Source: Leucoraja erinacea
Taxonomy: Eukaryota
Direction: 5' to 3'
Length of the DNA: 64,000 nt
Assembly (NCBI RefSeq): GCF_028641065.1
Contig: NC_073407.1
Span: forward strand, 124,001-188,000
How positions within the stretch are numbered: the first letter of the stretch is position 1; each line of letters opens with the position of its first letter. Made by a program: the position numbers and the translations under genes. The notes under the pieces are model-generated. The model was not told where the DNA came from and made no database searches. It saw only the letters and a program-made list of their open reading frames with translations. Positions 6,760-60,165 of this stretch are shown in pieces.

Positions 6760-8648
6760 TAAACAACGGCTGACGGCCTGTATAGGCCCAGTAACGATTG
6801 ATCCCTGAGAAATCTTCCCTCCAGATTGCACCCACGAATGGCAGCTATAATTGTGTCATTACTGATAGTCAACTGCCTGATAGACGGGGCTCTGGGGAAT
6901 ATGTCATCCGACTGAAGGAGGGGGGGACCAGTACATTCCGAGTTGACCCTTGTCAAGACTATGGGAGAAAGTGTGCTGACCGGGGAGACGCCACAGATGG
7001 GACATACGTGTGTCGAGCCCCCTGCACAGGATGGGCCTATGTGTTCCAACACTCAGAATGCGGGGGTTATAAGGATAGGAATGCAGAACAAGGGAAAAGG
7101 TGGTCTCTGATTAAACCCTCTACCCCGCACCACCGCCCCGGTTGGCAAACATTCGTAACAATAAAACAAATAAGTAAAAAGTATCTGGGGAATTATTATC
7201 TATGCGTTGATAAGGCGCTGGCCCAAGATAGGTGCTGTCAGTTCACACTAGAGGTGGAAGACCGGACTGAACTTAAAGCCACCCTAGAGCCGGATCCCAG
7301 CTTCGGCGATAGTAAAACCAGAAGAGCAGGCGATCAAAATAATCCCAGTAAAAGACCTGAAAAAATCCCTGGAAATCGAAACTGGGTATGCAGACGAGAA
7401 TGCTTGGCTGGAGTGGATGCGATATACAGCTAAGACTTTGGGGCAAAAGGATTGTTACGCCTGTGCTTCAGCCAAGCCACAACTCATCCCCACCCCATTT
7501 CCCCTTAAATTTTAGTAACTCGCCAGAAGGGGTCACATGTTCCCTGTTCATGGGGAAGGAAGCACCAAAGTATAAAAGCTGCTCAGACCTACATTATCTG
7601 TTCCCGGCAGTACTGAAGGACATGATCCCACCACCATTCACCATCCCAAAAAGGGCAAGATTTAATTGCTTCTCTGGGTGGAGTGAAGAAGGAAAGTTCT
7701 TGGGCCACTTGGGGAACTGTGTAGCTAGAGTAAAAATTTCCGGAGTCAAACCAGCAAGTCCCCTGCTGGGATTAGACGTCAACAGAAAGTTGTGAGGTCA
7801 GATGTATGGTGGTATTGTGGAGGTAGAATATTAAGAATAAAGCTACCCCAGAATTGGAAGGGAATGTGCGCAATGACGCAGCTGATAATGCCCTTCACCC
7901 TAGTAACCCTAAGGAGAGGCGAAGGAAGAGAGGACCCAGGAGAGATGGGATCAGGGAAGAGAATAAGGCGGGAACTAATTAAAGGATCGTTCGACGCCCA
8001 CATCTACATTGACGAGATCGGGGTCCCAGATGAGTTCAAGGCCCGAAATCAGATAGCCGCCGGATTTGAGTCAGTCGTTTTCTGGTGGTCAACCACTAAT
8101 AAGAATGTAGACTGGATCAACTATCTGTGCTACAATCAGCAGCGGTTCATTAACTACACAAGAGACGCCATAAAAGGCATGGTCGAACAATTGGATCAAA
8201 CTAGCTTAATGGCCTGGCAAAATCGGATGGCCTTAGACATGTTATTAGTGAATAAAGGAGGCGGGTGTGTCATGTTTGGGCCATCGTGTTGCACCTTCAT
8301 TCCAAATAACACTGCCCCGGACGGCTCAGTCTCCAGGGCCTTGGCTGGGTTAAAATCACTGGCAGAGGAGCTGGCCGAGAACTCCGGGGTTCATGGACAG
8401 GGTTCCTTGAAAGCTGGTTCGGGAAATGGAAAAATATTGTAATTTCTGCACTAACATCCTTCATAGTGATTACAGGAATATTGGCCGGATTGGGATGCTG
8501 TATAATTCCCTGTGTTCAAGGGTTGTCTCAAAAACTAATAGAAACAGCTCTTACAAAAAAAATGCAGATGGAATACGAGTTGATTCCTCAGAAGGGGATT
8601 GAGGAAGAAGAAGTGGACATTGACCTAATAGATACCTTCATGGCCTGA
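6760..8648 (+). pseudogene. env: Class I (HERV-I/gamma-epsilon-like) ERV env, frameshifted
   Basis: ETGYADENAWLEW and SU CxxC (CYAC); furin site RIRR; IGVPDEFKARNQIAAGFES; ISD QNRMALDMLL; CX6CC (CVMFGPSCC); TM anchor GCCIIPC. Split over several frames. Confidence 0.92.
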
Positions 8649-14179: not shown

Positions 14180-14522
14180 GTATAACCATATAACAATTAC
14201 AGCACGGAAACAGGCCATCTCGGCCCTTCTAGTCCGTGCTGAACACTTACTCTCACCTAGTCCCATCTATCTGCACTCAGCCCATAACCCTCCATTCCTT
14301 TCCCGTCCATATACCTAACCAATTTATTTTTAAATGATAAAATCGAACCTGCCTCCACCACTTCCACTGGAAGCTCATTCCACACAGCAACCACTCTCTG
14401 AGCAAAGAAGTTTCCCCTTATGTTACCCCTAAACTTTTGTCTATTAATTCTCAAATCATGTCCTCTTGTTTGGATCTTCCCTACTCTCAATGGAAAAAGC
14501 TTATCCACATCAACTCTGTCCA
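14180..14522 (-). mobile_element. CR1 (HER1-type) 3' fragment
   Basis: FFAQRVVAVWNELP; (ATATGGTT) tail. Confidence 0.9.
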
Positions 14523-36067: not shown

Positions 36068-36184
36068 GGAAGGAGGGTCAGCGCTCCTCGGACAACATCC
36101 GCTGCCTTGGCCGTTGGGATTTCCTCACCACCGCCTCCCTCCTCCGCCAGCCAACAGCAAGGTGTGGGGCCGAGCGGTGCAGCT

Positions 36185-36212
36185 CAAAGATCCTACAGCT
36201 ATAGGATCTATG
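36185..36212. mobile_element. 28-bp palindromic micro-MITE with 8-bp TSD
   Basis: gtgcagct-CAAAGATCCTACAGCTATAGGATCTATG-gtgcagct. Confidence 0.85.
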
Positions 36213-37514
36213 GTGCAGCTGCTTCAGAAGTGTTGCAGCGAATGACGACTCCCGCACAGCAGCAGCAGCATCAACTTAGAACAACAGCATCAGATCAACT
36301 TAGAAGACAGGTCAAGGAATGGCAGATGGAGTTTAACTGGGACATGCAAAGTGATGCATTTTTGGAAAGGAGCAGCATTTGCTGCTGTGTCAGGTGTACA
36401 TAGCGAATACAGATAGAGTATCCATTACAGTTTGAGGGAACAGCGCGATCATTCCTTTCCCGAATTATACTGAATTTACTTCACCCATCACCTGAGTGCT
36501 AATCTTGGTCTCAAAATTCTTATCCTAGATTTCAATCCCCTGTGTGGCCATCATAGTTCCAGGAATCACATCCCAATGTCAGGCACTACAATCACATCAC
36601 TACAATCAGGGAATTATCCTGTTGGTTGTCTCATTTAGGCATAGGGCATGGGAACAAACAATTTGACCACCACATCCACACTGAACAGTAGGCACCTTTC
36701 AAAATTAATCCCATCTAGCATTTGGACTCCAGCCTACAATTGCTGGCGATTCAAATGCTGGTCTGGACAGCTGTTAAATGCCGTAAGTAACTCTGCTTCT
36801 AGCATTCTTGTTGGCAGTGTTTTCCAGCTACTTGCCACTCACTGGGTAAAAAACGTCTCCCTCAAATCCCCTTTAAATCTCTCATCCCTTACCCTAAATA
36901 TGTGCCCTCTTGTTGTATTCACCTGTATAGGGAAATGTTTCCTGCAGTTTACTCTATCGATAATAAATACCCTTATAGGTTTATATACCTCAGTCTTTTC
37001 TCCTCTTAATCCCCTCTGGTCCAGGGAGAACTAACAATAACTGGAATATTGTTGAAGCTGGTGCAAAAGATGATTTGTTGAAAGTGGGAGCTGATGGGTG
37101 GAAGATGATGACCAGAGAAACTGTCATCATGTTCTGTTTAGGAGAATGGGCGATGGCAGAGATGCCGGAAACAACTAAGATACTCCCCAGGGTAGAAGGA
37201 AAGAAATGGCTCTGGAAGAAGGAAGGCCTCTCAAAAGCATCCGTGGGCCTGGCTCAGCACAGGCCTCCAATCAGAAAAACCTCATCACAACCACCTTTGG
37301 ACTCCTTCCTTCAGTTTAATTTTGAATCCAGTTGGCCAGCTCAACTGGAATTTCATGCAATTTAGAGTAGCCCAAACCTTGTCAAAATCCTTGCTGAATT
37401 CCATACAGCCAACATCCACCAAGCTTGTCCAATATTTCCTCCATGCTACCACTTTTCAGTCCTGACAAAGTCCTGTACTCCACCTTCAGTACAATTCCAC
37501 CATTCAGTACAATT

Positions 37515-38250
37515 CCACCATCTGAATGGTTGCCGATTAGGAAAAGGGAAGATGCAACGAGACCTGGGTGTCATGGTACACCAGTCATTGAAAGTAGGCA
37601 TACAGGTGCAGCAGGCAGTGAAGGAAGCGAATGGTATGTTAGCATTCATAGCGAAAGGATTTGAGTATAGGAGCAGGAAGGTTCTGCTGCAGTTGCAAAG
37701 GGCCTTGGTGAGACCACACCTGGAGTATTATGTATAGTTTTGGTCTCCTAATCTGAGGAAAGACATTCTTGCCATAGAGAGAGTACAGAGGTTCACCAGA
37801 CTGATTCCTGGGATGGCAGGACTTTCATATGAAGAAAGACTGGATAGACTCAGCTTGTACACGCTAGAATTTAGAAGATTGAGGGGGGATCTTATAGAAA
37901 CTTACAAAATTCTTAAGGGGTTGGACAAGCTAGATGCAGGAAGATTATTCCCAATGTTGGGGAAGTCCAGAACAAGGGGTCACAGTTTAAGGATAAGAGG
38001 GAAGTCTTTTAGGACCGAGATGAGAAAATCATTTTTTACACTGTGAATTCTCGGTAGTTGAGGCCAGTTCATTGGCTGGATTTAAGAGGGAGTTAGATGT
38101 GGCCCTTGTGGCTAAAGTGATACCCCCTTATGGAGAGAAGGCAGGTATGGGATATTGATTTGGATGATCAGCCATGACCATATAGAATGGCGGTGCAGGC
38201 TCGAAGGGCCGAATGGCCTACTCCTGCACCTATTTTCTATGTTTCTATGT
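37515..38250 (+). mobile_element. CR1 3' fragment
   Basis: QRDLGVMVH...LVRPHLEY; (TTTCTATG) tail. Confidence 0.9.
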
Positions 38251-39283
38251 CCAAGTGAATTAGTTAGAACTTATTGCACAGGAACAGGCCATTCCACTCG
38301 ACAATGATCGCCAGCAAATGCCAGCACTGGGTGCATAGTTGTGTTGGGGGGGGGGGGACAGACTACAGACTGTTAGAACATACACGGGATTGTTCCTATC
38401 CAAATTAAAAATGATAATTGGTCTCTGTGCTCGGACACATTTGACAGGTGGGTAGCACACTGGAGACCACATTAACAGAGAGGCCAGAATAAGCCGCTGG
38501 CCTCTGGAATAAGCACAATCAAACACTCAAAAGAATGGATATGTTTTCAGCAGTGGACAGGGGAATGGGGTGACTTGGATAATTAAAAATGAGAAAATAT
38601 CTGCTTTCTCAAGGTGATATGGATTCTCTTTCTCTCTCTCTCTCTCTATTTTACCACATCTTCCCACTATCCCTTCCACTGAATCGTGAATACTTTTGTT
38701 TTCTTACACAAGTCTGTTCCATTAGTCTGTTGTTTATGTCTCAATGACAAATCCTTTACCAGTCACACTCTCTCTCTCTCTCTGTTCACAACTCCCCCTC
38801 ACTAAAACAAGCTCCATCTGCACACCACCAGGGTGACATGACGATAGGTGGAGGGGCAGGTACTGTTGAGGAAGCAAGGAGTCCGCAGAAGGACTTGGAC
38901 AGGCTGGGGAAGAAGGCAAAGAAGAGGCAAATGGAAGACAACGCATCAAAGTGTATGGTCATGCATTTTCAGTAGGAGTAAAGGCTTAGACAGCTTTCTA
39001 AATGGGGAGGGGATTCAGAAATCAGAGATGCAAAGAGACTTGGGAGTGCTGGTGTAGGATTCCCAAAAGGTTTGCAGGTTGAGTTGGCAGCAAGGAAGGC
39101 ATATGAGTTTAGACGAATGAAGGGGGGGCCTTACTGAATCATACAGAATAGTGAAAGGGTGGATAGAGTGGATGTGGGAAGGAAGTTTCCACTAGTGGGA
39201 GAGTCATGGACTAGAGGTCATAGCGTCAGAATTGAAGGACGTTCATTTAGGAGGAGATGAAGAGAAATGTTTTTAGTAAGAGG

Positions 39284-39530
39284 GCGGGGAAGCCACGTGA
39301 CGCGGAGCGGGGATCGCGGGGAAGCCATGTGACGCGGACATCGGGCGTGTTGAGGACAAAGATCTTATCGCGAGCGATAAAATCTTTGGTTGAGGAGGTG
39401 ACGTTGGAGGGGGAATTGTATCACGCGCCCCCGCCCCGGGTCAGGTGACCCCGCGAGCGGGCGAAGCCGACACGTGCGCTGGGCGCGAAGGACGGTTTAA
39501 CGGTCGGGGATTGAAGGCGCGGTATTGGGC
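39284..39530. promoter_or_regulatory. CpG-island-like, promoter-like segment
   Basis: Very high CpG density, CACGTGAC/CATGTGAC E-boxes and a GCCCCGCCCC GC box. No linked gene seen. Confidence 0.4.
39357..39388. mobile_element. 32-bp palindromic micro-MITE with 8-bp TSD
   Basis: gttgagga-CAAAGATCTTATCGCGAGCGATAAAATCTTTG-gttgagga. Confidence 0.88.
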
Positions 39531-39560
39531 AAAGATCCTATAGCTCCTCTAGTATCTTTG
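39530..39560. mobile_element. 31-bp palindromic micro-MITE with 8-bp TSD
   Basis: gtattggg-CAAAGATCCTATAGCTCCTCTAGTATCTTTG-gtattggg. Confidence 0.88.
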
Positions 39561-39799
39561 GTATTGGGAGTTGAGGAGGAGAGTGGGAGGGAAGGGAAGG
39601 AGAGGGGGAACGTGAGAATGAACGGGAAAGGGAAGTATGTAGTTTGAAAGGCAACCGTGATGGGGAAAGAAATGGAAGCAAGGAAAGATACGAGAAAACG
39701 GAGGATGAAAAGAAAGGATAAAATGAAAAGAAAGGAAACTGAAGATATAGCGAAGGGGTGTCTGAATGAATGAAATAGCAAGAAGGAAGGAGGAAAATA

Positions 39800-42700
39800 G
39801 AATGTGCCATAGAGTGATACAGCGTGGAAGCAGGCCCTTCGGCCCAACTTGCCCACACCACCTGCCCACCCACATTAGTCCCACCTGCCTGTGCTTGGTC
39901 CACATGTCTCCAAACCTGTCATATCCATGCACCTGTCTGTTTCTTAAACGTCGGGGTAGTCCCAGCCTTAAGTACCTCATCTGGCAGCTTGTTCCATACA
40001 CCCACCACACTTTATGTGAAAAAGTAACCCTGGTCCTCTGGTCCTCGATTCCCCTACTCTTGGTGGGCAATGCTGTTGAGGGATGGAATTCAGTCCCTTG
40101 CGAGGGAAGACTTAGGGCATCCCAGGGTCCTCAGGGAGGTAGCTCTAGAAATAGTGGACGCAATTGTGATAATTTTCCAATGTTCAATAGATTCAGGATC
40201 AGTTCCTGTGGATTGGTACTGGAATTTTCTGGAATAATCATCTGGAATTTTTTGAGGATGTGCCAAATAAAATGGATGAAGGGGTGCCAGTGGATGTAGT
40301 GTATTTAGACTTTCAGAAAGCCTTTGATAAGGTCCAGCACAGGAGACTGGTGACTAAAATTAGCGCACATGGTATTGGGGGGTAGGGTGTTGACATGGAT
40401 AGAAAATTGGTTGGCAGACCGGAAGCAAAGAGTAGGAGTAAACGGGTCCTTTTCAGAATGGCAGGCAGTGGCGAGTGGAGTGCCGCAAGGCTTGGTGTTG
40501 GGGCCGCAACTCTTTACCATATATATCAATGATTTGGAAGAGGGAATTAGGAGCAACACTAGCAAGTTTGCGGATGACACAAAGCTGGGTGGCCTCACCA
40601 ATGCCTTGTACAATTTTAACATTACACCCCAACATCTATGCTCAATGTTCTGATTTATAAAGGCTAGCACACCAAAAGCTTTCTTTACCACCCTATATAA
40701 CTATATAATCATATAACAATTACAGAACGGAAACAGGCCATCCCGGCCCCTCTAGTCCGTGCCGAACACTTATTCTCCCCTAGTCCCATCTATCTGCACT
40801 CAGACCATAACCATCCATTCCTTTCCCGTCCATATACCTATCCAATTTATTTTTAAATTATAAAATCGAACCAGCCTCCACCACTTCCACTGCAAGCTCA
40901 TTCCACACAGCTACCACTCTCTGAGTAAAGAAGTTCCCCGTTAAGTTGCCTCTCATCATTTTAAAGACCTCTATCAAGTCCCCCCTTAGCCTTCTGCGCT
41001 CCAAAGAATAAAGACCTATCTTGTTCAACCTTTCTCTGTGACTTAGGTGCTGAAACCCAGGCAACATTCTAGTGAATCTCCGCTGTACTCTCTCTATTTT
41101 GTTGACTTCTTTCCTATAATTTGGCGACCAGAATTGTACACCATATTCCAGAATTGGCCTCACCAATCCCTTGTACAATTTTAACATTACATCCCAACTT
41201 CTATACTCAATGCTCTGATTTATAAAGGCCAGCACACCAAAAGCTTTCTTTACCACCCTATCTACATGAGATTCTACCTTCAGGGAACTATGCACGGTTA
41301 TTCCTAGATCACTCTGTTCAACTGCATTCCTATCATTTACCATGTATGTCCTATTTTGATTTGTCCTGCCAAGATGTAGCACATCACACTTATCAGCATT
41401 AAACTACATCTGCCATCTAGCAGCCCACTCTTCCAAATGGCCTAAATCTCTCTGTAGACTTTGAAAATCTACTTCATTATCCACAACCCCACCTATCTTA
41501 GTATCATCTGCATACTTACCAATCCAATTTACCACACCATCATCCAGATCATTGGTGTATATGACAAACAACAGTGTACCCAACACAGATCCCTGAAACA
41601 CCCCACTAGTCACTGGCCTCCAACCTGACAAACAGTTATCCACCATTACTCTCTGGAATCTCCCATTCAGCCAATGTTGAATCCACTTGCTACTCCACTA
41701 TTAATACCCAACAATTGAACCGTCTTAACCAACCTTCCACGTGGAACCTTGTCAAAGGCCTTATTGAAGTCCATATACACAACATCCACCGCTTTACCCT
41801 CTTCAATTCCCCTAGTAACCTCTTCAAAAAATTCAAGAAGATTAGTCAAACATGACTTTCCAGGCGCAAATCCATGTTGACTGTTCCTAATCAGACCCTG
41901 TTTATCCAGACGCTTATATATATTATCTCTAAGTATCCTTTCCATTAATTTGCCCACCACAGACTTCAAACTAACACGTCAAAATTGCTAGGTTTACTTT
42001 TAGAACACTTTTTAAACAATGGAACAACATGCGCAGTACGCCAATCCTCCAGCACCATTCCCGTTTCTAATGACATTTGAAATATTTCTGTCACAGCCCC
42101 TGCTATTTCTACACTAACTTCCCTCAATGTCCTAGGGCATATCCTCTCAGGACTTGGAGACTTATCCACTTTTATACTTTTCAAAATTGTCAGTACTTCC
42201 TCTTCTTTGATCCTCATAGTTTCCATAGCTACTCTTCTTGTTTCCCTTACCTCACATAATTCCATATCCTTCTCCTTGATGAATACCGATGAAGGGAAAT
42301 TGTTCAATATCTCCCCCATCTCTTTTGGCTCTGCAGATAGCTGTCCACTCTGACTCTCTAATTGACCAATTTTATCCCTCATTATCCTTTTGATATTAAT
42401 ATAGCTGTAGAAACCCTTTGGATTTACTTTCACGTTACTTGCCACAGCAACCTCATATCTTCTTTTAGCTTTTCTAATTTCTTTCTTAAGATTATTTTTA
42501 CACTCTTTACTCCTCAAGCATCTTATTTACTCCATGCTGCCTATAATTATTGTAGATCTCACTCTTTTTCCCAAACCAAGTGTCCAATTTCCCTTGAAAA
42601 TTATTACTATTTCCTTTCAACCGAACAGGGACATAACATTCTGTATTCTTAAAATGTCACCTTTAAATGTGCTCCATTTCTCTTCTACATCCTTCCCATA

Positions 42701-44170: not shown

Positions 44171-44425
44171 TGCATGTCATTGTGGTATATACCATGTCTT
44201 GATTGGTGAATATGTTTCGTTTGTGACTTTATTTGAAGCAGAAATAATATGTGAATGCTTCATTTTGCATAATCCCGACTGGTATCTACGCAATTCGTAG
44301 AGCACATTATCGCAAGTGTCATGCAAGCCATCTTAAATGACCACCTAAACTGTCATTTGGCAACCTAAAAAGCTGCCAAGGTTGCCCGGCTGACAACAGC
44401 GAAAAATAATTAAGCAAGAGCCCTG
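44171..44425 (-). mobile_element. hAT-like non-autonomous transposon end
   Basis: Terminus CAGGGCTC; inverted copy of 34407-34660. Confidence 0.65.
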
Positions 44426-46729
44426 CAAGGTGTATGATATGTTGACACTGTAATAGGCCTTTCTTACATTTGCTGTCACAACGCACTGTAGTCTCTAAAC
44501 AACCCTTCAGTAATTTTCCTTGCCCTCCATTCCAGAACAATAGTGTTTTAAGCCAATAATCTACACTAGCACTGGCAATAAATAAATAAATAAAAGCGCA
44601 GCTTTCCAGCCCCTTATCTCATTGGCCACCCTAGGCTGCAAATCGGTGTCAATTTGGTGGACCATCTTCCTCTAGTCGTGAGGGTGGGGGATTGGGAAGG
44701 GCCTCACAAGTGGAACAGTTTAGGGCCTCTCTTCATCTAAATCCGGCCCTGGTGTTAGGCCACATACAACAGGCCCAATCTCTATTCAAATCATGCTGGG
44801 CCCAATGAATTCAGTCGCGGTTACTTCTTAAAGTATGTTGAATGGACCCAATGCGCCAAATGCAAACAAACAGAACGAGTCCAGAATGTGCGGCCCATTT
44901 GATTGCAACAGCTTCTGCTCCCTTACTCACGCACCCGCAAATAGCCGAAACTGAATTTAAGTGGAATCATAAACAGGGTGGATATCGGAAGCGAACAAAA
45001 GAGTTTTGATTTACAAGACCAATCTACCCGAACCAATTTACAATCGTTGGTGGAACGTGATCTCGGCTAATCCCAGATCCCGGATATGAGTTCGCAGTGT
45101 CTATACTTGTCCCTTGTTCATTCCGGATCTCGATCCATAAATTATTCCCACGTAATGTGTTCATTGTCTACCGGTGTGAAATAAATCAAGTACGCTTTCA
45201 TTATCTTGAAACTGTTTTTGTAAAGCTCTGCGGTAATATTAGAATGAATTATGATATCGATCACTATTTGGAGGATCACGCAATTCGGCACGACGTGCTC
45301 TTTGTTGCGCAAAGTACCCAAGAACAAGGTTGCGAATGTCACCTTTGCTGCTTTTTTCCACTGAAACGTTGACATTAAATGCACTCTGATCAGTTTAACT
45401 TTAACGTCATCGGACACCCGGGGCCATTGTGACTGTTCAACCGAAGTGATTCGTGTTCGAACATAGCCAGTGACGATTTGAGAAATTATATCTGTTAAGG
45501 AAGTAGTATAACCAGAATAAGTACTAAAGTGATGTAAAGGTAACTTCGAGAAACTAACACAGCACGCCAGGTTAGTCAATATATAGCTCAACTTTTATTT
45601 GTGTAACCACATAAACATTTTACAGAGAAGGTTTTATAAGCTTCACACAAAGTGGATAAAACATTTGTGTTCCTTACTGAGACCAGGTCAACTGAACATT
45701 TAGCTCGCTGACCAATTGCAGTGACCACGCGTGTCGGGGGATAAACGCAGAAATAAGGAAAGGACAACTGTGCAAAAAAGACGGGAATGGTGACTTGTTC
45801 ATACACGGAATAGTCGAAGAAGTTGGACTCTCTGGCATATATTTACACATGCGTTTACATTACATTGAATGTACAGGACATTGGTTAGGCCGAAAATAAA
45901 GTGTTGTGTGCAGACTTGATCACCCCATTGAAGGAATTATGGGGAGGCTTTGGAGAAAGAGCAGATGAGGTTTCATCGAATGCTGTATGAATTAGAAGTG
46001 CGGGTATGATTTTTACACTGAAAATATCGCGTGTCTGGGGCGCGCTTGCCATGGGTAGTGGAGGCAGACGCGGTAGTGACATTAGAAGAGTTTTATATAG
46101 GCACATGGATATGCAGTAAACAGCGGGTGTGAATCGCGTACAGTATAAGAGAATAGCTTTAACCTGGCATGCGGTTCGGCCCGGGCACTGTGCATCGAAG
46201 AGTCTGTCCCTGTATTGTAGTGTTAAATGATAAAGTCAGGACAGTATCAACACTGGCTTGGTGATGGGTGACAGGCGGCGTTGTTGCATAGATGATTTTT
46301 TTCCCGATTGAAAGTCTGCTACATGCTGTCCACCGCAGAGAGTGTTGGCCGAGGAACATTTTTGACGTCGTGGATTTTAAATTATGAGGTATGTTTTAAG
46401 TCTGTGGATGTCACAATAATTTTAGGTAATATGAATAGCGAAGAATGTTGTCTAAGGCTAACATACAACGGAATGCCCTGGAAGCATTGACGGATGAAAT
46501 TAAATCCGAATAAATCTGGAATTTGGGGAAGATTATGCTTTCTGGGAAGACAGATGGAGGTAGGAAAATTGCAGTAAATGTTGACAAGGAATGTTAATGA
46601 ACAGTGAGGCCTTCGTTTCCAATACCCCAATTTTCAGAAAGTGGCAAGACAGAACAACAACATGCTGAAGGAAGCACATGACATAGAATATAATGGTCGC
46701 GGTGTTATGTTGTAATTTTCTGAAGACAA

Positions 46730-55547: not shown

Positions 55548-55939
55548 TCATTGACATGAATTGACAGTATCCATCAATAGAAGTGAAACATTCACAAAAC
55601 TGGGTTTACCACTGGACTTATTGACCGTTCTAACGATGGTCTTCATGGGTAGTGTTTCGTGTCCCACCACACAGGAGAACGAGGCTCCGCTCGCCCATTG
55701 CTCTGCCCCAATGGACAACAGGCTGTACATGAAGAAGGAGTTGTCGCCGTTCTCCGCCACCACCTCGGTGTTCCTGTAGTTGCTCGAATGCACCCGCTGG
55801 TTATCGACTGTCCATGTGACGAAGATCCTGCGAGGGGAGAATCCTCTCACAAAGCAGGTGAGGGCGATGGTCTTGTGATCGGAGACTTCTTCTGCCGGCG
55901 GCAGGAGAACCGAGACGGACGGTTCCCGGGGATGTGGAT
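55548..55939 (-). CDS. IGHM: Ig mu CH4 exon plus secretory tailpiece
   Basis: [14 protein letters not shown]...[10 protein letters not shown]...FFMYSLL...FSCVVGHE...NKSS then [20 protein letters not shown]-stop. The tail has the N-x-S sequon and penultimate Cys of elasmobranch secretory IgM. Acceptor ttgttccatag. Confidence 0.97.
55604..55612 (-). other. IGHM: Internal CH4 splice donor for the membrane form (G|GTAAAC; exon ends at 55610)
   Basis: Donor lies in the Gly-Lys codons at the CH4/tail junction, the canonical position. Phase 1 matches TM1. Confidence 0.85.
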
Positions 55940-56449
55940 CTATGGAACAAATCAAATGGCGTTTATTACACTTGAACATTAAAGCGATTTAAAGCTAGCA
56001 GGCATTTGATGGTTCTTTTCTGAATTTTAGTGAGTTTCAGAAGCGGTATTGATTCTGCTTCACCACAACCTCATTTGCAAGGCCTACCCATATCCCTGCT
56101 AATTGCCACACCTTGCAGTTTTTGAAAACGCTGCCCTCATCCACTATGCAATTGTGTGCTATTGACTGGAGCTCGGTCACAACATACCGACACAGGAAGC
56201 CTAGCCCGATATAATTGCCGATATTTCCATTGACCTGAACGCACTTCATATTTTCCGCAAATTATTTTCACTTTCTCTCTTTTCCAGTTAAGACCAAAGA
56301 TTTAATGAATTGTTAGCACTGCTTCTTTTTACATAGATATGTGTTCGTGGGCTCAGTGATCACACTCATTGATTTTTTCTCCAACCCAGAAGAAAAGTGC
56401 AACCGTCTCTTCCGGCCCACAGGACTCCTCTGCAGCTACCCCGGCTCAC

Positions 56450-56752
56450 CTGCCATCTTGTAGATTGATTTCGTTTTTGGAGTCGCCATATCATCATGGC
56501 TCACTACGCAATCAAACTCATCCCCACTCATCCAGTCACGCGTCGAGATGTTCGCTTTGCTCTCTACAACTTCTGCGTTTTCTGTGGACAGGATCTCTGA
56601 ATCCAAAGGCGTCTTTCCTCGACTCCAAGACACTTTGATCCCAACAGGTGCATTGGAGACTATGCAGGTTAAAGTCACGGTCATCTCCATTAACTCCTGC
56701 TGCACAGTTGGTGGGTGGATTGCAATCTTTACTTTGCGGCAGGAATCATCAT
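56450..56752 (-). CDS. IGHM: Ig mu heavy chain CH3 exon
   Basis: DDDSC...HPP...TVTLTCIVSNAP...VSW...NISTRDWMSGDEFDCVVSH. Acceptor tgccacag, donor gtgagc, 303 bp, phase 1. Confidence 0.95.
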
Positions 56753-57008
56753 CTGTGGCACAAAAATGATGTAAACACAAGGATTGCCTGGAGAAACCGG
56801 AATTTATGTTTGACACATTTCCTCCGAAGAGGGCAGGATCCCTTCTAGGCTTTGGGTCTATGAACTATGGTCCTAAATCGTCTTGAAATGAACTCTGAGC
56901 AGAGAACAACGTAAGAAATTGAATGAGAGTGTGCGTCATGGGCTGTCCCAATGTTCAATGAAGGGAAGTATTTACACTGATATCCGATACCATGGATGTG
57001 TTTCTTAC

Positions 57009-57320
57009 CTGGAGACCTGCTGATGTTTTGGCTCAGCCGATCCTCCCCTTGGTCGACCTGGCAGGTATAGATAGCACCTCCGAACCATTCTGAAGTTGGG
57101 AATGTCAACTGGCTGGTCGCTGAGAAGGTGCTGTTCAGCTTGAAGGCGGGAGAGGTGACGATGCCAGAATCCAGAGGCTCACCATTCTTCAGCCAGGTAA
57201 CGGAAAATGTCTGTGGGCCGATGTCGGTGAGCGAACACAAGGCAGTCGCTTTCGTGCTGCGTTTTAGTTCATCGTGTTCAGTCAGAGTAATGGCGATGAC
57301 TGGATGATGCACCATTTGAT
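57009..57320 (-). CDS. IGHM: Ig mu heavy chain CH2 exon
   Basis: DQMVHHP...ATALCSL...VTWLKNG...FSATSQLT...EWF...YTCQV. Acceptor tttcttcaag, donor gtaaga, 312 bp, phase 1. Confidence 0.95.
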
Positions 57321-57864
57321 CTTGAAGAAAATAAACTTCAATTAATAAACTTCAAAGTTCCAAACTACTACCCTTAATAATTAAAACAACTTGTAACATA
57401 GAAGACACTTCTCCTGAATAAATAGTCTCCCACACAGAATTATCAAGGCGTTGTTAAATCATAGGTTTCTCAAGGTGCATAACATACTGCTACGAAGTGG
57501 GAATATTATAGATAGGTACGTCATAGTTTGCCGTGACGATTTTCGGAACATGATTCCAACAGTCCACATTTAGCTCATAAGATGATTATTTCAGTGGCTC
57601 CCCTGTTAACGAGCTAAGCTTCTCCCAATTTACCACGGACGTGCTCCCGTGGTACATCACTGATGATCGCTCTTTTGAAGCTCACTCGGGTAAATTAATG
57701 GCTGTATAACCTTTAAACGATGAAAAGTCGCGCAGATTGAGGTACCGCGTCTCCTTCCTTCCCAACAGCACAGGCGGTGGATCGACTTTAAACATCGCCA
57801 CCATCCCACTGCCCTGTGGAAAAGAGTTGCTGTCCATGTTCTGACCTATTTTCTATGTTTCTAT

Positions 57865-59510
57865 ACTAGATGCAGAAAAAATGTTCCCAGTGTTGGGCGA
57901 GTCCAGAACCAGGGCCCACAGTCTTCGAATAAAGGGGAAGCCATTTAACCATATTACAGCACGGAAACAGGCCATCTCGGCCCTACAAGTCCGTGCCGAA
58001 CAAATTTATTTTCCCCTTAGTCCCACCTGCCTGCACTCATACCATAACCCTCCATTCCCTTCTCATCCATATGCCTATCCAATTTATTTTTAAATGATAC
58101 CAATGAACCTGCCTCCACCACTTCCACTGGAAGCTCATTCCACACCGCTACCTCTCTCTGAGTAAAGAAGTCCCCCCTCATATTACCCCTAAACTTCTGT
58201 CCCTTAATTCTGAAGTCATGTCCTCTTGTTTGAATCTTCCCTATTCTCAAAGGGAAAAGCTTGTCCACATCAACTCTGTCTATCCCTCTCATCATTTTAA
58301 AGACCTCTATCAAGTCCCCCCTTAACCTTCTGCGCTCCAGAGAATAAAGACCTAACTTATTCAACCTATCTCTGTAACTTAGTTGTTGAAACCCAGGCAA
58401 CATTCTAGTAAATCTCCTCTGTAATCTCTCTATTTTGTTGACATCCTTCCTATAATTGGGCGACCAAAATTGTACACCATACTCCAGATTTGGTCTCACC
58501 AATGCCTTGTACAATTTTAACATTACATCCCAGCTTCTATACTCAATGCTCTGATTTATAAAGGCTAGCATAACAAAAGCTTTCTTTACCACCCTATCTA
58601 TATGAGATTCCACCTTCAAGGAATTATGCACGGTTATACCCAGATCCCTCTGTTCAACTGTATTCTTCAATTCCCTACCATTTACCATGTACGTCCTATT
58701 TTGATTTGTCCTGCCAAGGTGTAGCACCTCACATTTATCAGCATTAAATTCCATCTGCCATCTTTCAGCCCATTTTTCCAAATGGCCTAAATCACTCTGT
58801 AGACTTTGGAAATCCTCTTCATTATCCACAACACCCCCTATCTTGGTATCATCTGCATACTTACTAATCCAATTTACCACACCTTCATCCAGATCATTGA
58901 TGTACATGACAAACAACAAAGGACCCAACACAGATCCCTGAGGCACCCACTAGTCACCTGCCTCCAACCCGATAAACAGCCATCCACTATTACCCTCTGG
59001 CTTCTCCCATTCAGCCACTGTTGAATCCATCTTGCTATTCCTGCATTTATACCCAACAGTTGAACCTTCTTAACCAACCTTCCATGAAGAACCTTGTCAA
59101 AGGCCTTACTAAAGTCCATATAGACAACATCCACTGCTTTAGCCTCGTCAATTTCCCTAGTAACCTCTTCAAAAAATTCAAGAAGATTAGTCAAACATGA
59201 CCTTCCAGGCTCAAATCCATGTTGACATTTAAGACTGAGGTGAGAGAAACACATTTTCACCCAGAGAGTTGTGAATTTGTGGAATTCCCTGCCACAGAGG
59301 GCAGTGGAGGCCAAAAGTCACTGGATAGATTTAAGGGAGAGTTAGATAGAGCTCTAGGGGCTAGTGGAGTCAAGGGATATGGGGAGAAGGCAGGCACGGG
59401 TTATTGATTGGGGATGATCAGACATGATCACAACGAATGGCGGTGCTGGCTCGAAGGGCCGAATGGCCTCCTCCTCTTCCTGCACCTATTTTCTATGTTT
59501 CTATGTTTCT
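57865..59510. mobile_element. Plus-strand CR1 with a nested young minus-strand CR1 (57949-59225) in the CH1-CH2 intron
   Basis: 309-aa open RT fragment; TSD catttaa at 57942-57948 and 59226-59232. Confidence 0.92.
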
Positions 59511-59773
59511 CCTGAGACTTTTACGGTTTTATAGTTACGTTGGGAACGAAAGTGTACACAGTGGTCCAGAGCTCCCGTACTTTCATATTTATCTAATGGC
59601 CTGAATTCCCTTTGCTTCATTCAGTGTTATACGGAAACTTAATGTCAATATGGCAAGGAGAACACAACAGCAAATCAACAACGTATACGTGGAATTTGAA
59701 CATATCTTCACCAATTGTTAAACCTCGTACTCGGAACTATACACTTCAAACCGGGACATATCCTAACACGTAC

Positions 59774-60070
59774 CTGGCATTTTTACGTTATTCACTTTAC
59801 CGCCATGCTGAACCACACAGTAGATTGTGCGCTTTTCCGCGTCTGCCTTGGCGATGGTCAATTGGCTGCTCCTCGTGTATGTTCCACTCTTGTTTTTTAA
59901 TGCCTGATACGTCTTCACTCCTGTGGTAATCGGCTCATTATCTTTTTTCCAGGAGAGCGTGGTGCCCATCGGGGTGTAGTCCATTGCCAAACAGCCGAAG
60001 GTGAATGAGTCCATGGAGCTGGGATCCACACAAGTGCGAAGAGGATAGAGGTTGGGGGCAGAAGGATCCG
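59774..60070 (-). CDS. IGHM: Ig mu heavy chain CH1 exon
   Basis: Translates ADPSAPNLYPLRTC...FGCLAMDY...SWKKDNEPITTG...SSQLTI...IYCVVQH, a C1-set domain with B/F-strand Cys, C-strand Trp and an N-terminal light-chain Cys. Acceptor tttctttcag, donor gtacgt, 297 bp, phase 1. Confidence 0.95.
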
Positions 60071-60165
60071 CTGAAAGAAAACAATTCAGTGAATAAATTA
60101 ACTCTTCATTGTTTCCTTGCCTCATATTCAACTAAAACAATGGATCAATATATAGCAAAATAGTT

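Follow-up and report, generated by a model that had tools for sequence, protein, structure and literature searches.

Short palindromes between 8-bp duplications in the Leucoraja erinacea genome as probable excision scars of P-superfamily transposons

The window analysed here, a stretch of 64,000 nucleotides of the Leucoraja erinacea genome, holds three palindromes of 28-32 bp, each set between two copies of an 8-bp direct repeat, and the question which they raise is whether so short a unit is itself a transposon or what a longer one left behind. A preliminary description had proposed the former. The reading favoured here, to which we assign a probability of roughly 0.78, is that the three palindromes and their target site duplications (TSDs) are excision scars of longer transposons of the P superfamily, and not mobile units. 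The features concerned, as read from the sequence, are listed below; none of them is assigned a strand, and the stubs are those of terminal inverted repeats (TIRs) as they appear under this reading.

36177..36184, no strand: TSD of unit 1, left copy, exact repeat of 36213-36220
36185..36212, no strand: unit 1, 28 bp, probably two joined TIR stubs
36213..36220, no strand: TSD of unit 1, right copy
39251..39625, no strand: CpG island, putatively promoter-like, host of units 2 and 3 (GC 0.58, CpG o/e 1.3)
39349..39356, no strand: TSD of unit 2, left copy
39357..39388, no strand: unit 2, 32 bp, probably two joined TIR stubs
39389..39396, no strand: TSD of unit 2, right copy
39522..39529, no strand: TSD of unit 3, left copy
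39530..39560, no strand: unit 3, 31 bp, probably two unlike joined TIR stubs
39561..39568, no strand: TSD of unit 3, right copy

The three palindromes are present where they had been described, with exact 8-bp flanking repeats, GTGCAGCT for unit 1, GTTGAGGA for unit 2 and GTATTGGG for unit 3, and they stand far above the shuffle controls. The two-arm pattern yields 5 matches, which fall at 3 places; in 100 shuffles its matches average 0.08 and never exceed 2. An unbiased scan of the 64 kb, which accepts any termini provided that the insert measures 20-45 bp, that 6 or more of the 7 terminal bases are inverted and that the 8-bp repeat is exact, returns 3 matches, namely units 1, 2 and 3, and pairs of CANAG...CTNTG lying 12 bp to 20 kb apart between exact 8-bp repeats are likewise confined in the window to these units. 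A relaxed scan adds to them a fourth match at 14200-14241, whose repeat is mismatched and which corresponds to the null level of that scan (one match in 4 of 40 shuffles, none with more). By chance, an exact 8-bp repeat is expected at ~1.7e-5 per site, and three random points would fall within ≤3.4 kb of each other with a probability of 0.008.

Concerning the relatedness of the palindromes, the description holds in that all 6 arms start with CA(A/T)AGAT, and fails for the symmetry of unit 3, whose arms agree at only 12 of their first 17 bases; the CAAAGATC start together with near-perfect arms is found in units 1 and 2 only. Among the six arms, pairs have 10-15 of the first 17 bases in common. 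Since all 24 TSD base pairs across the three units are intact, these arm differences are not the product of decay after insertion, and the unlike arms go back to distinct ends or distinct joins. The TSDs all begin with GT (3/3), as had been noted, but match the 8-base fly P core at 3-4 positions only, and none ends in AC. The DNA folding z-scores of the units, -3.2 to -4.4, merely restate the palindrome. A search of Rfam with 30-46 kb of the window gave 0 matches, hence the units are not a known small RNA, and the motif scan found no RAG signal motifs adjoining them.

The Drosophila P element offers a frame for this anatomy. The fly transposase makes its cuts 17 nt in from either end, so that the chromosome keeps 17-nt 3' tails (PMC2895639; PMC7776569), and this stagger is named as setting P apart from other cut-and-paste elements (PMC7776569). 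In the repair junctions both 8-bp TSDs are retained around fused stubs (PMC2895639, Tables 1-3); in these three tables a 30-bp palindrome was recovered from 14, 5 and 7 independent isolates and a 32-bp palindrome from 5, 2 and 3, other junctions being blunt joins or carrying filler (PMC2895639). P prefers promoters and open chromatin and needs binding sites internal to its 31-bp TIR (PMC7776569). Its target consensus begins with GT (PMC2577343), as does that of Galileo, and within the superfamily TSDs of both 7 and 8 bp occur (PMC4168063).

In all three window units the TSD copies are intact around two TIR stubs and measure exactly 8 bp, and the unit lengths, 28, 31 and 32 bp, come from a scan open to 20 kb. 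The units contain no internal binding sites or subterminal repeats, as expected for scars. The TSD lengths, the termini and the length of the stubs lead us to infer a parent in the P superfamily, which the preliminary description had already named as a candidate. In the proposed course of events a longer element, whose termini read CA(A/T)AGAT..., would insert into open, CpG-rich germline DNA, duplicating 8 bp; its transposase would excise it by staggered cuts placed ~17 nt in from either end, so that the chromosome kept the two TSDs and, of each TIR, a single-stranded stub; and end joining would fuse the stubs, with 2-6 nt trimmed or annealed, to give 28-32 bp. On this scheme unit 1 would fit 16+16 with a 4-bp self-complementary overlap, unit 2 could be 17+17 with a 2-bp overlap or 15+17 joined blunt, and unit 3 could be 17+17 with a 3-bp overlap or 17+14, where any unit below 34 bp will of necessity give such an overlap (34 minus length), which is by itself no test. 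The earlier recognition of a transposon origin, with two fused TIR ends between 8-bp TSDs, stands, the structure being that of a P excision product.

The likeness to Drosophila P junctions extends to the retention of both 8-bp TSDs around joined TIR stubs of 14-17 bp, to joins that use 2-3-nt microhomology, are blunt or contain a short filler (PMC2895639), to the common lengths of 30-32 bp, and to recurring identical products, CA...TG termini and promoter preference (PMC2895639; PMC7776569). The fly junctions were made in the laboratory, in Rad51-mutant germlines, whereas the units here are natural, inherited and common to related species, and the 17-nt cut known from the fly (PMC2895639) is here a proposed one. 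The TIR described here departs from that of fly P beyond the first 2-3 bases and occurs in at least 2 or 3 end variants. The ends of fly P and of zebrafish Pdre2 begin with CAT and the six arms here with CA(A/T)AGAT, and CA...TG is a weak feature found in other families too. Among vertebrates, zebrafish Pdre/THAP9 is P-like and has 8-bp TSDs and CA...TG termini, but the 13-bp TIR of Pdre2 is unlike the one here in sequence, and the Pdre copies described are long or internally deleted and not 30-bp scars (PMC10983969). Galileo resembles the units in its 7- or 8-bp TSDs and its target consensus starting with GT, and differs in having TIRs of hundreds of bases (PMC4168063). The P-derived MITEs of Anopheles are also short and non-autonomous, but those named measure 205-2450 bp and keep subterminal sequence, of which the units here keep none (PMC1562414).

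The genomic setting had been described as GC- and CpG-rich for all units. This is true of units 2 and 3, which lie in a true CpG island, and applies less well to unit 1, whose flanks (GC 0.58, o/e 0.64) are moderately CpG-rich and which lies 110 bases from an assembly gap. The island spans 375 bp and its o/e of 1.3 tops 9 island-like stretches, the window as a whole having 0.47; a motif scan found in it three E-box-type motifs (39294, 39326, 39440) and a GC box at 39429, and we regard it as putatively promoter-like. That the insertions favour CpG-rich DNA is borne out by two of three units lying inside this one island, and the probability for two of three units in any island is, as a post hoc figure, ~0.006. 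The island also shows a near-tandem duplication of ~20 bp at 39286-39339, with an E-box-type motif in each copy.

Part of the stretch is contained in 20 of the 24 listed sequencing runs, and contigs over 36070-39900 were examined from X1, X3, X17 and X19; the contig tables are dominated by CR1-type LINE copies, and the results refer to the matches listed. Unit 2 is spanned by contigs in X17 and X19, and unit 1 is spanned gap-free by a contig of organism B (X3; record 25). Base 39381 changes from A to G in other samples (both letters in X1, G in X19), and with G the first 15 bases are identical in both arms of unit 2. Contigs of X1 and X17 stop at 39558/39559 and resume at 39531, the limits of unit 3. 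A 31-mer graph (k=31) would give breaks that fall exactly at unit 3 without its TSD if the 31-mer had other flanks elsewhere; the exact 31-mer of unit 3 is thus likely to be multi-copy. Identical junctions recur in independent fly excisions, so that multi-copy identity is also expected of scars, and a multi-copy 31-mer is compatible with a scar and with a mobile unit alike.

Length variants are seen around site 3. In organism B a contig at half depth lacks 7 letters, and a contig of organism F runs through the site with a net deficit of 28 letters; table end distances suggest that ~30 letters are missing in organism F somewhere in 39382-39631, as against the 39 letters by which an empty site 3 would be short. 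No empty-site or long-element allele occurs among the matches listed, a set dominated by LINE copies. Contig depth is raised in the bins that hold the units, and its source may be the units or neighbouring simple or LINE repeats. Over 36070-36325 the summed contig depth is very high in all four runs, with an excess left of unit 1 beyond what the unit alone would give; unit 1 may lie within an unrecognised repeat of high copy number.

Relatives of the terminal motif were found in metagenomes at 13 loci, using a two-arm pattern with bases 1-14 fixed, bases 15-17 free and 28-36 bp allowed; because of this range the metagenome lengths give no upper limit, whereas the window scan open to 20 kb does bear on it, with n=3. 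An exact 7- or 8-bp duplication is present at 6 of the 13 loci, of 8 bp at L028 and L029 and of 7 bp at L030, L032, L035 and L037, and one with a single mismatch at L034 and L039. The five loci without a duplication at ≤1 mismatch are L040, where it has two mismatches, and four loci with none at all, namely L031 and L036, which are one sequence filed twice, and L033 and L038, whose hairpin is also present among viral contigs. Among the control matches a duplication is carried by 0 of 27 viral cases (looser pattern) and 0 of 2 prokaryotic ones; the two-arm scan with gaps up to 30 gave 0 viral matches and 2 prokaryotic ones, both without duplication, and in a single-arm scan of viral contigs 0 of the 10 matches had a partner arm and a duplication. 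Contigs of giant-virus type (L018, L023, L033, L038) show a long perfect hairpin with a motif-like core and inverted flanks, also without duplication.

The 10 distinct metagenome units of non-viral type are 10 different sequences. In family B (L030, L034, L035 and L040; 4 units, 8 arms) the majority base has a share of 0.75, 0.75 and 0.88 at bases 15-17 and of 0.5 at base 18, and in family A (L028, L029 and L039) base 18 is common to 5 of 6 arms, so family A may have been cut at 18 nt. Within families, arm likeness stops near base 17. L032, L034 and L035 read 17+1+17 and L039 reads 17+2+17, and the junction centre of L037 is that of unit 2. Outside the unit these loci are unlike the window; they are mostly non-coding, with longest frames of 73-116 aa, one carries a hAT dimerisation fragment, and they would represent eukaryotic host DNA of other animals. 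Transposons of the hAT superfamily have a fixed 8-bp TSD and leave footprints without TIR sequence. The exact 7-bp duplications at 4 loci with the same termini, and the retention of TIR sequence, do not fit a hAT origin. Near its scar-like unit, L030 also carries, at 1416-1742, a hAT-MITE-like element of 327 bp, which has CAGGGC at its termini and is flanked by an exact duplication of 8 bp.

The search for a parent element covered the window and the metagenome loci. All six of the 14-mers with ≤3 mismatches from an arm are the unit arms themselves, which means that the window contains no lone end and no longer copy. No P or THAP transposase was found in the 96 frames from 26-50 kb of the window, nor in the 47 frames of 10 metagenome loci. 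The superfamily assignment is accordingly one from anatomy, as neither parent element nor transposase was found. A 150-aa frame at 45145-45594 (minus strand) was tried as the C-terminus of a P transposase, a reading which went unsupported: it has no Pfam family and no PDB match, its best Atlas value is 0.79, and 0 of 154 candidates were obtained among longer proteins. In the literature, no TIR text in the available portions of PMC1562414 and PMC3698922 matches the motif, and the word 'footprint' is absent from those of PMC3573991 and PMC8230255. The literature search, with subscription journals, Repbase and Dfam outside it, brought up neither a paper on natural P scars of vertebrate genomes nor one on this TIR motif.

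With this evidence at hand the alternatives can be weighed. It is unlikely that the units are themselves non-autonomous cut-and-paste elements, which a transposase moves whole by cutting at or near their ends, as the preliminary description had it. Fly P ends need internal sites beyond the 31-bp TIR (PMC7776569), and cuts 17 nt inside each end leave, by geometry, 0 bp of duplex in a unit of ≤34 bp, so that the units could not transpose under the P mechanism. The perfect TSDs and the absence of any visible longer parent would suit a mobile unit, yet the three window units differ from one another (10-15 of 17 arm bases in common) while their TSDs are intact at 24 of 24 base pairs, and no two of the 10 metagenome units have the same sequence, which speaks for a spread of junctions and not for a homogeneous family. 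The contigs of X1 and X17 that break at the limits of unit 3, with its 31-mer likely to lie at other sites, would also agree with mobility, but recurrent identical junctions in the fly make multi-copy identity expected of scars (PMC2895639). The mobility claimed for the 28-32-bp unit itself is therefore probably wrong; the unit matches a P excision and end-joining product, and P cuts would leave it no duplex. It is similarly doubtful that some scars, for example the multi-copy 31-bp unit 3, later turned mobile as a two-stub micro-element moved whole and cut at its ends. If true, such an element would be among the smallest eukaryotic cut-and-paste units, and would target CpG-island promoters in the vertebrate germline with a terminal motif common to distant animals.

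Rather improbable, too, is that a longer palindromic element, of P, hAT or another family with 8-bp TSDs, lost its middle through replication slippage or an aborted gap repair, no particular depth of cut being involved. Active excision would then be unnecessary, and the later changes of length at site 3 (-7 in organism B; about -30 in organism F, apparently within 39382-39631) would be in keeping with it. Slippage, however, leaves unexplained why 3 of the 3 units returned by a scan that reached 20 kb measure 28-32 bp, why the arms stop near base 17 and why 1-2 filler bases lie between 17-base arms. One metagenome TSD, GTCTAGAC, resembles a hAT target, but the 7-bp duplications with the same termini misfit hAT, whose TSD is fixed at 8 bp. 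Chance hairpins, local duplications or assembly artefacts are hardly credible. Unit 1 does lie only 110 bases from an assembly gap, and hairpins with similar arms do arise by chance in viruses (27) and bacteria (2), but chance hairpins with a duplication number 0 of 29; the shuffle controls also argue against chance, contigs from other runs show units 2 and 3 again, and one of organism B spans unit 1.

If the scar reading is right, P-type transposons completed both insertion and excision in the cartilaginous-fish germline, and the long staggered cut, so far measured for the fly enzyme only, acts there too. Zebrafish THAP9, the one tested vertebrate mobile P transposase, gave in cells excision with larger flank deletions and no integration (PMC10983969). 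The mechanism of excision and end joining is itself textbook. Such scars would form a natural and countable record of cut depth, of germline end-joining outcomes and of open chromatin; they are probably too short for the usual repeat finders, and each would alter promoter-like DNA by 36-40 bp. That unrelated host DNA in metagenomes carries the terminal motif suggests that the family is widespread or has moved horizontally, and the motif may help to search vertebrates for an intact P transposase.

Regarding the surroundings, the window is rich in LINE fragments, with RVT_1 and endonuclease matches. At 44200-46400 it has a non-LINE stretch in which CpGs appear, by eye, less depleted; the stretch includes the 150-aa frame discussed above, and near 44750 there is a possible hAT-type end. 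A broken endogenous retroviral env remnant is found on the plus strand at 6795-8648, in several frames (TLV_coat, E 8e-06). Four C1-set immunoglobulin exons lie on the minus strand at 55551-60131 (55.5-60.1 kb), likely representing a heavy-chain constant region within an Ig cluster of a cartilaginous fish, and beyond them, at 60.2-62.6 kb, there are two Penelope-like GIY-YIG frames, with one weak Pfam match.
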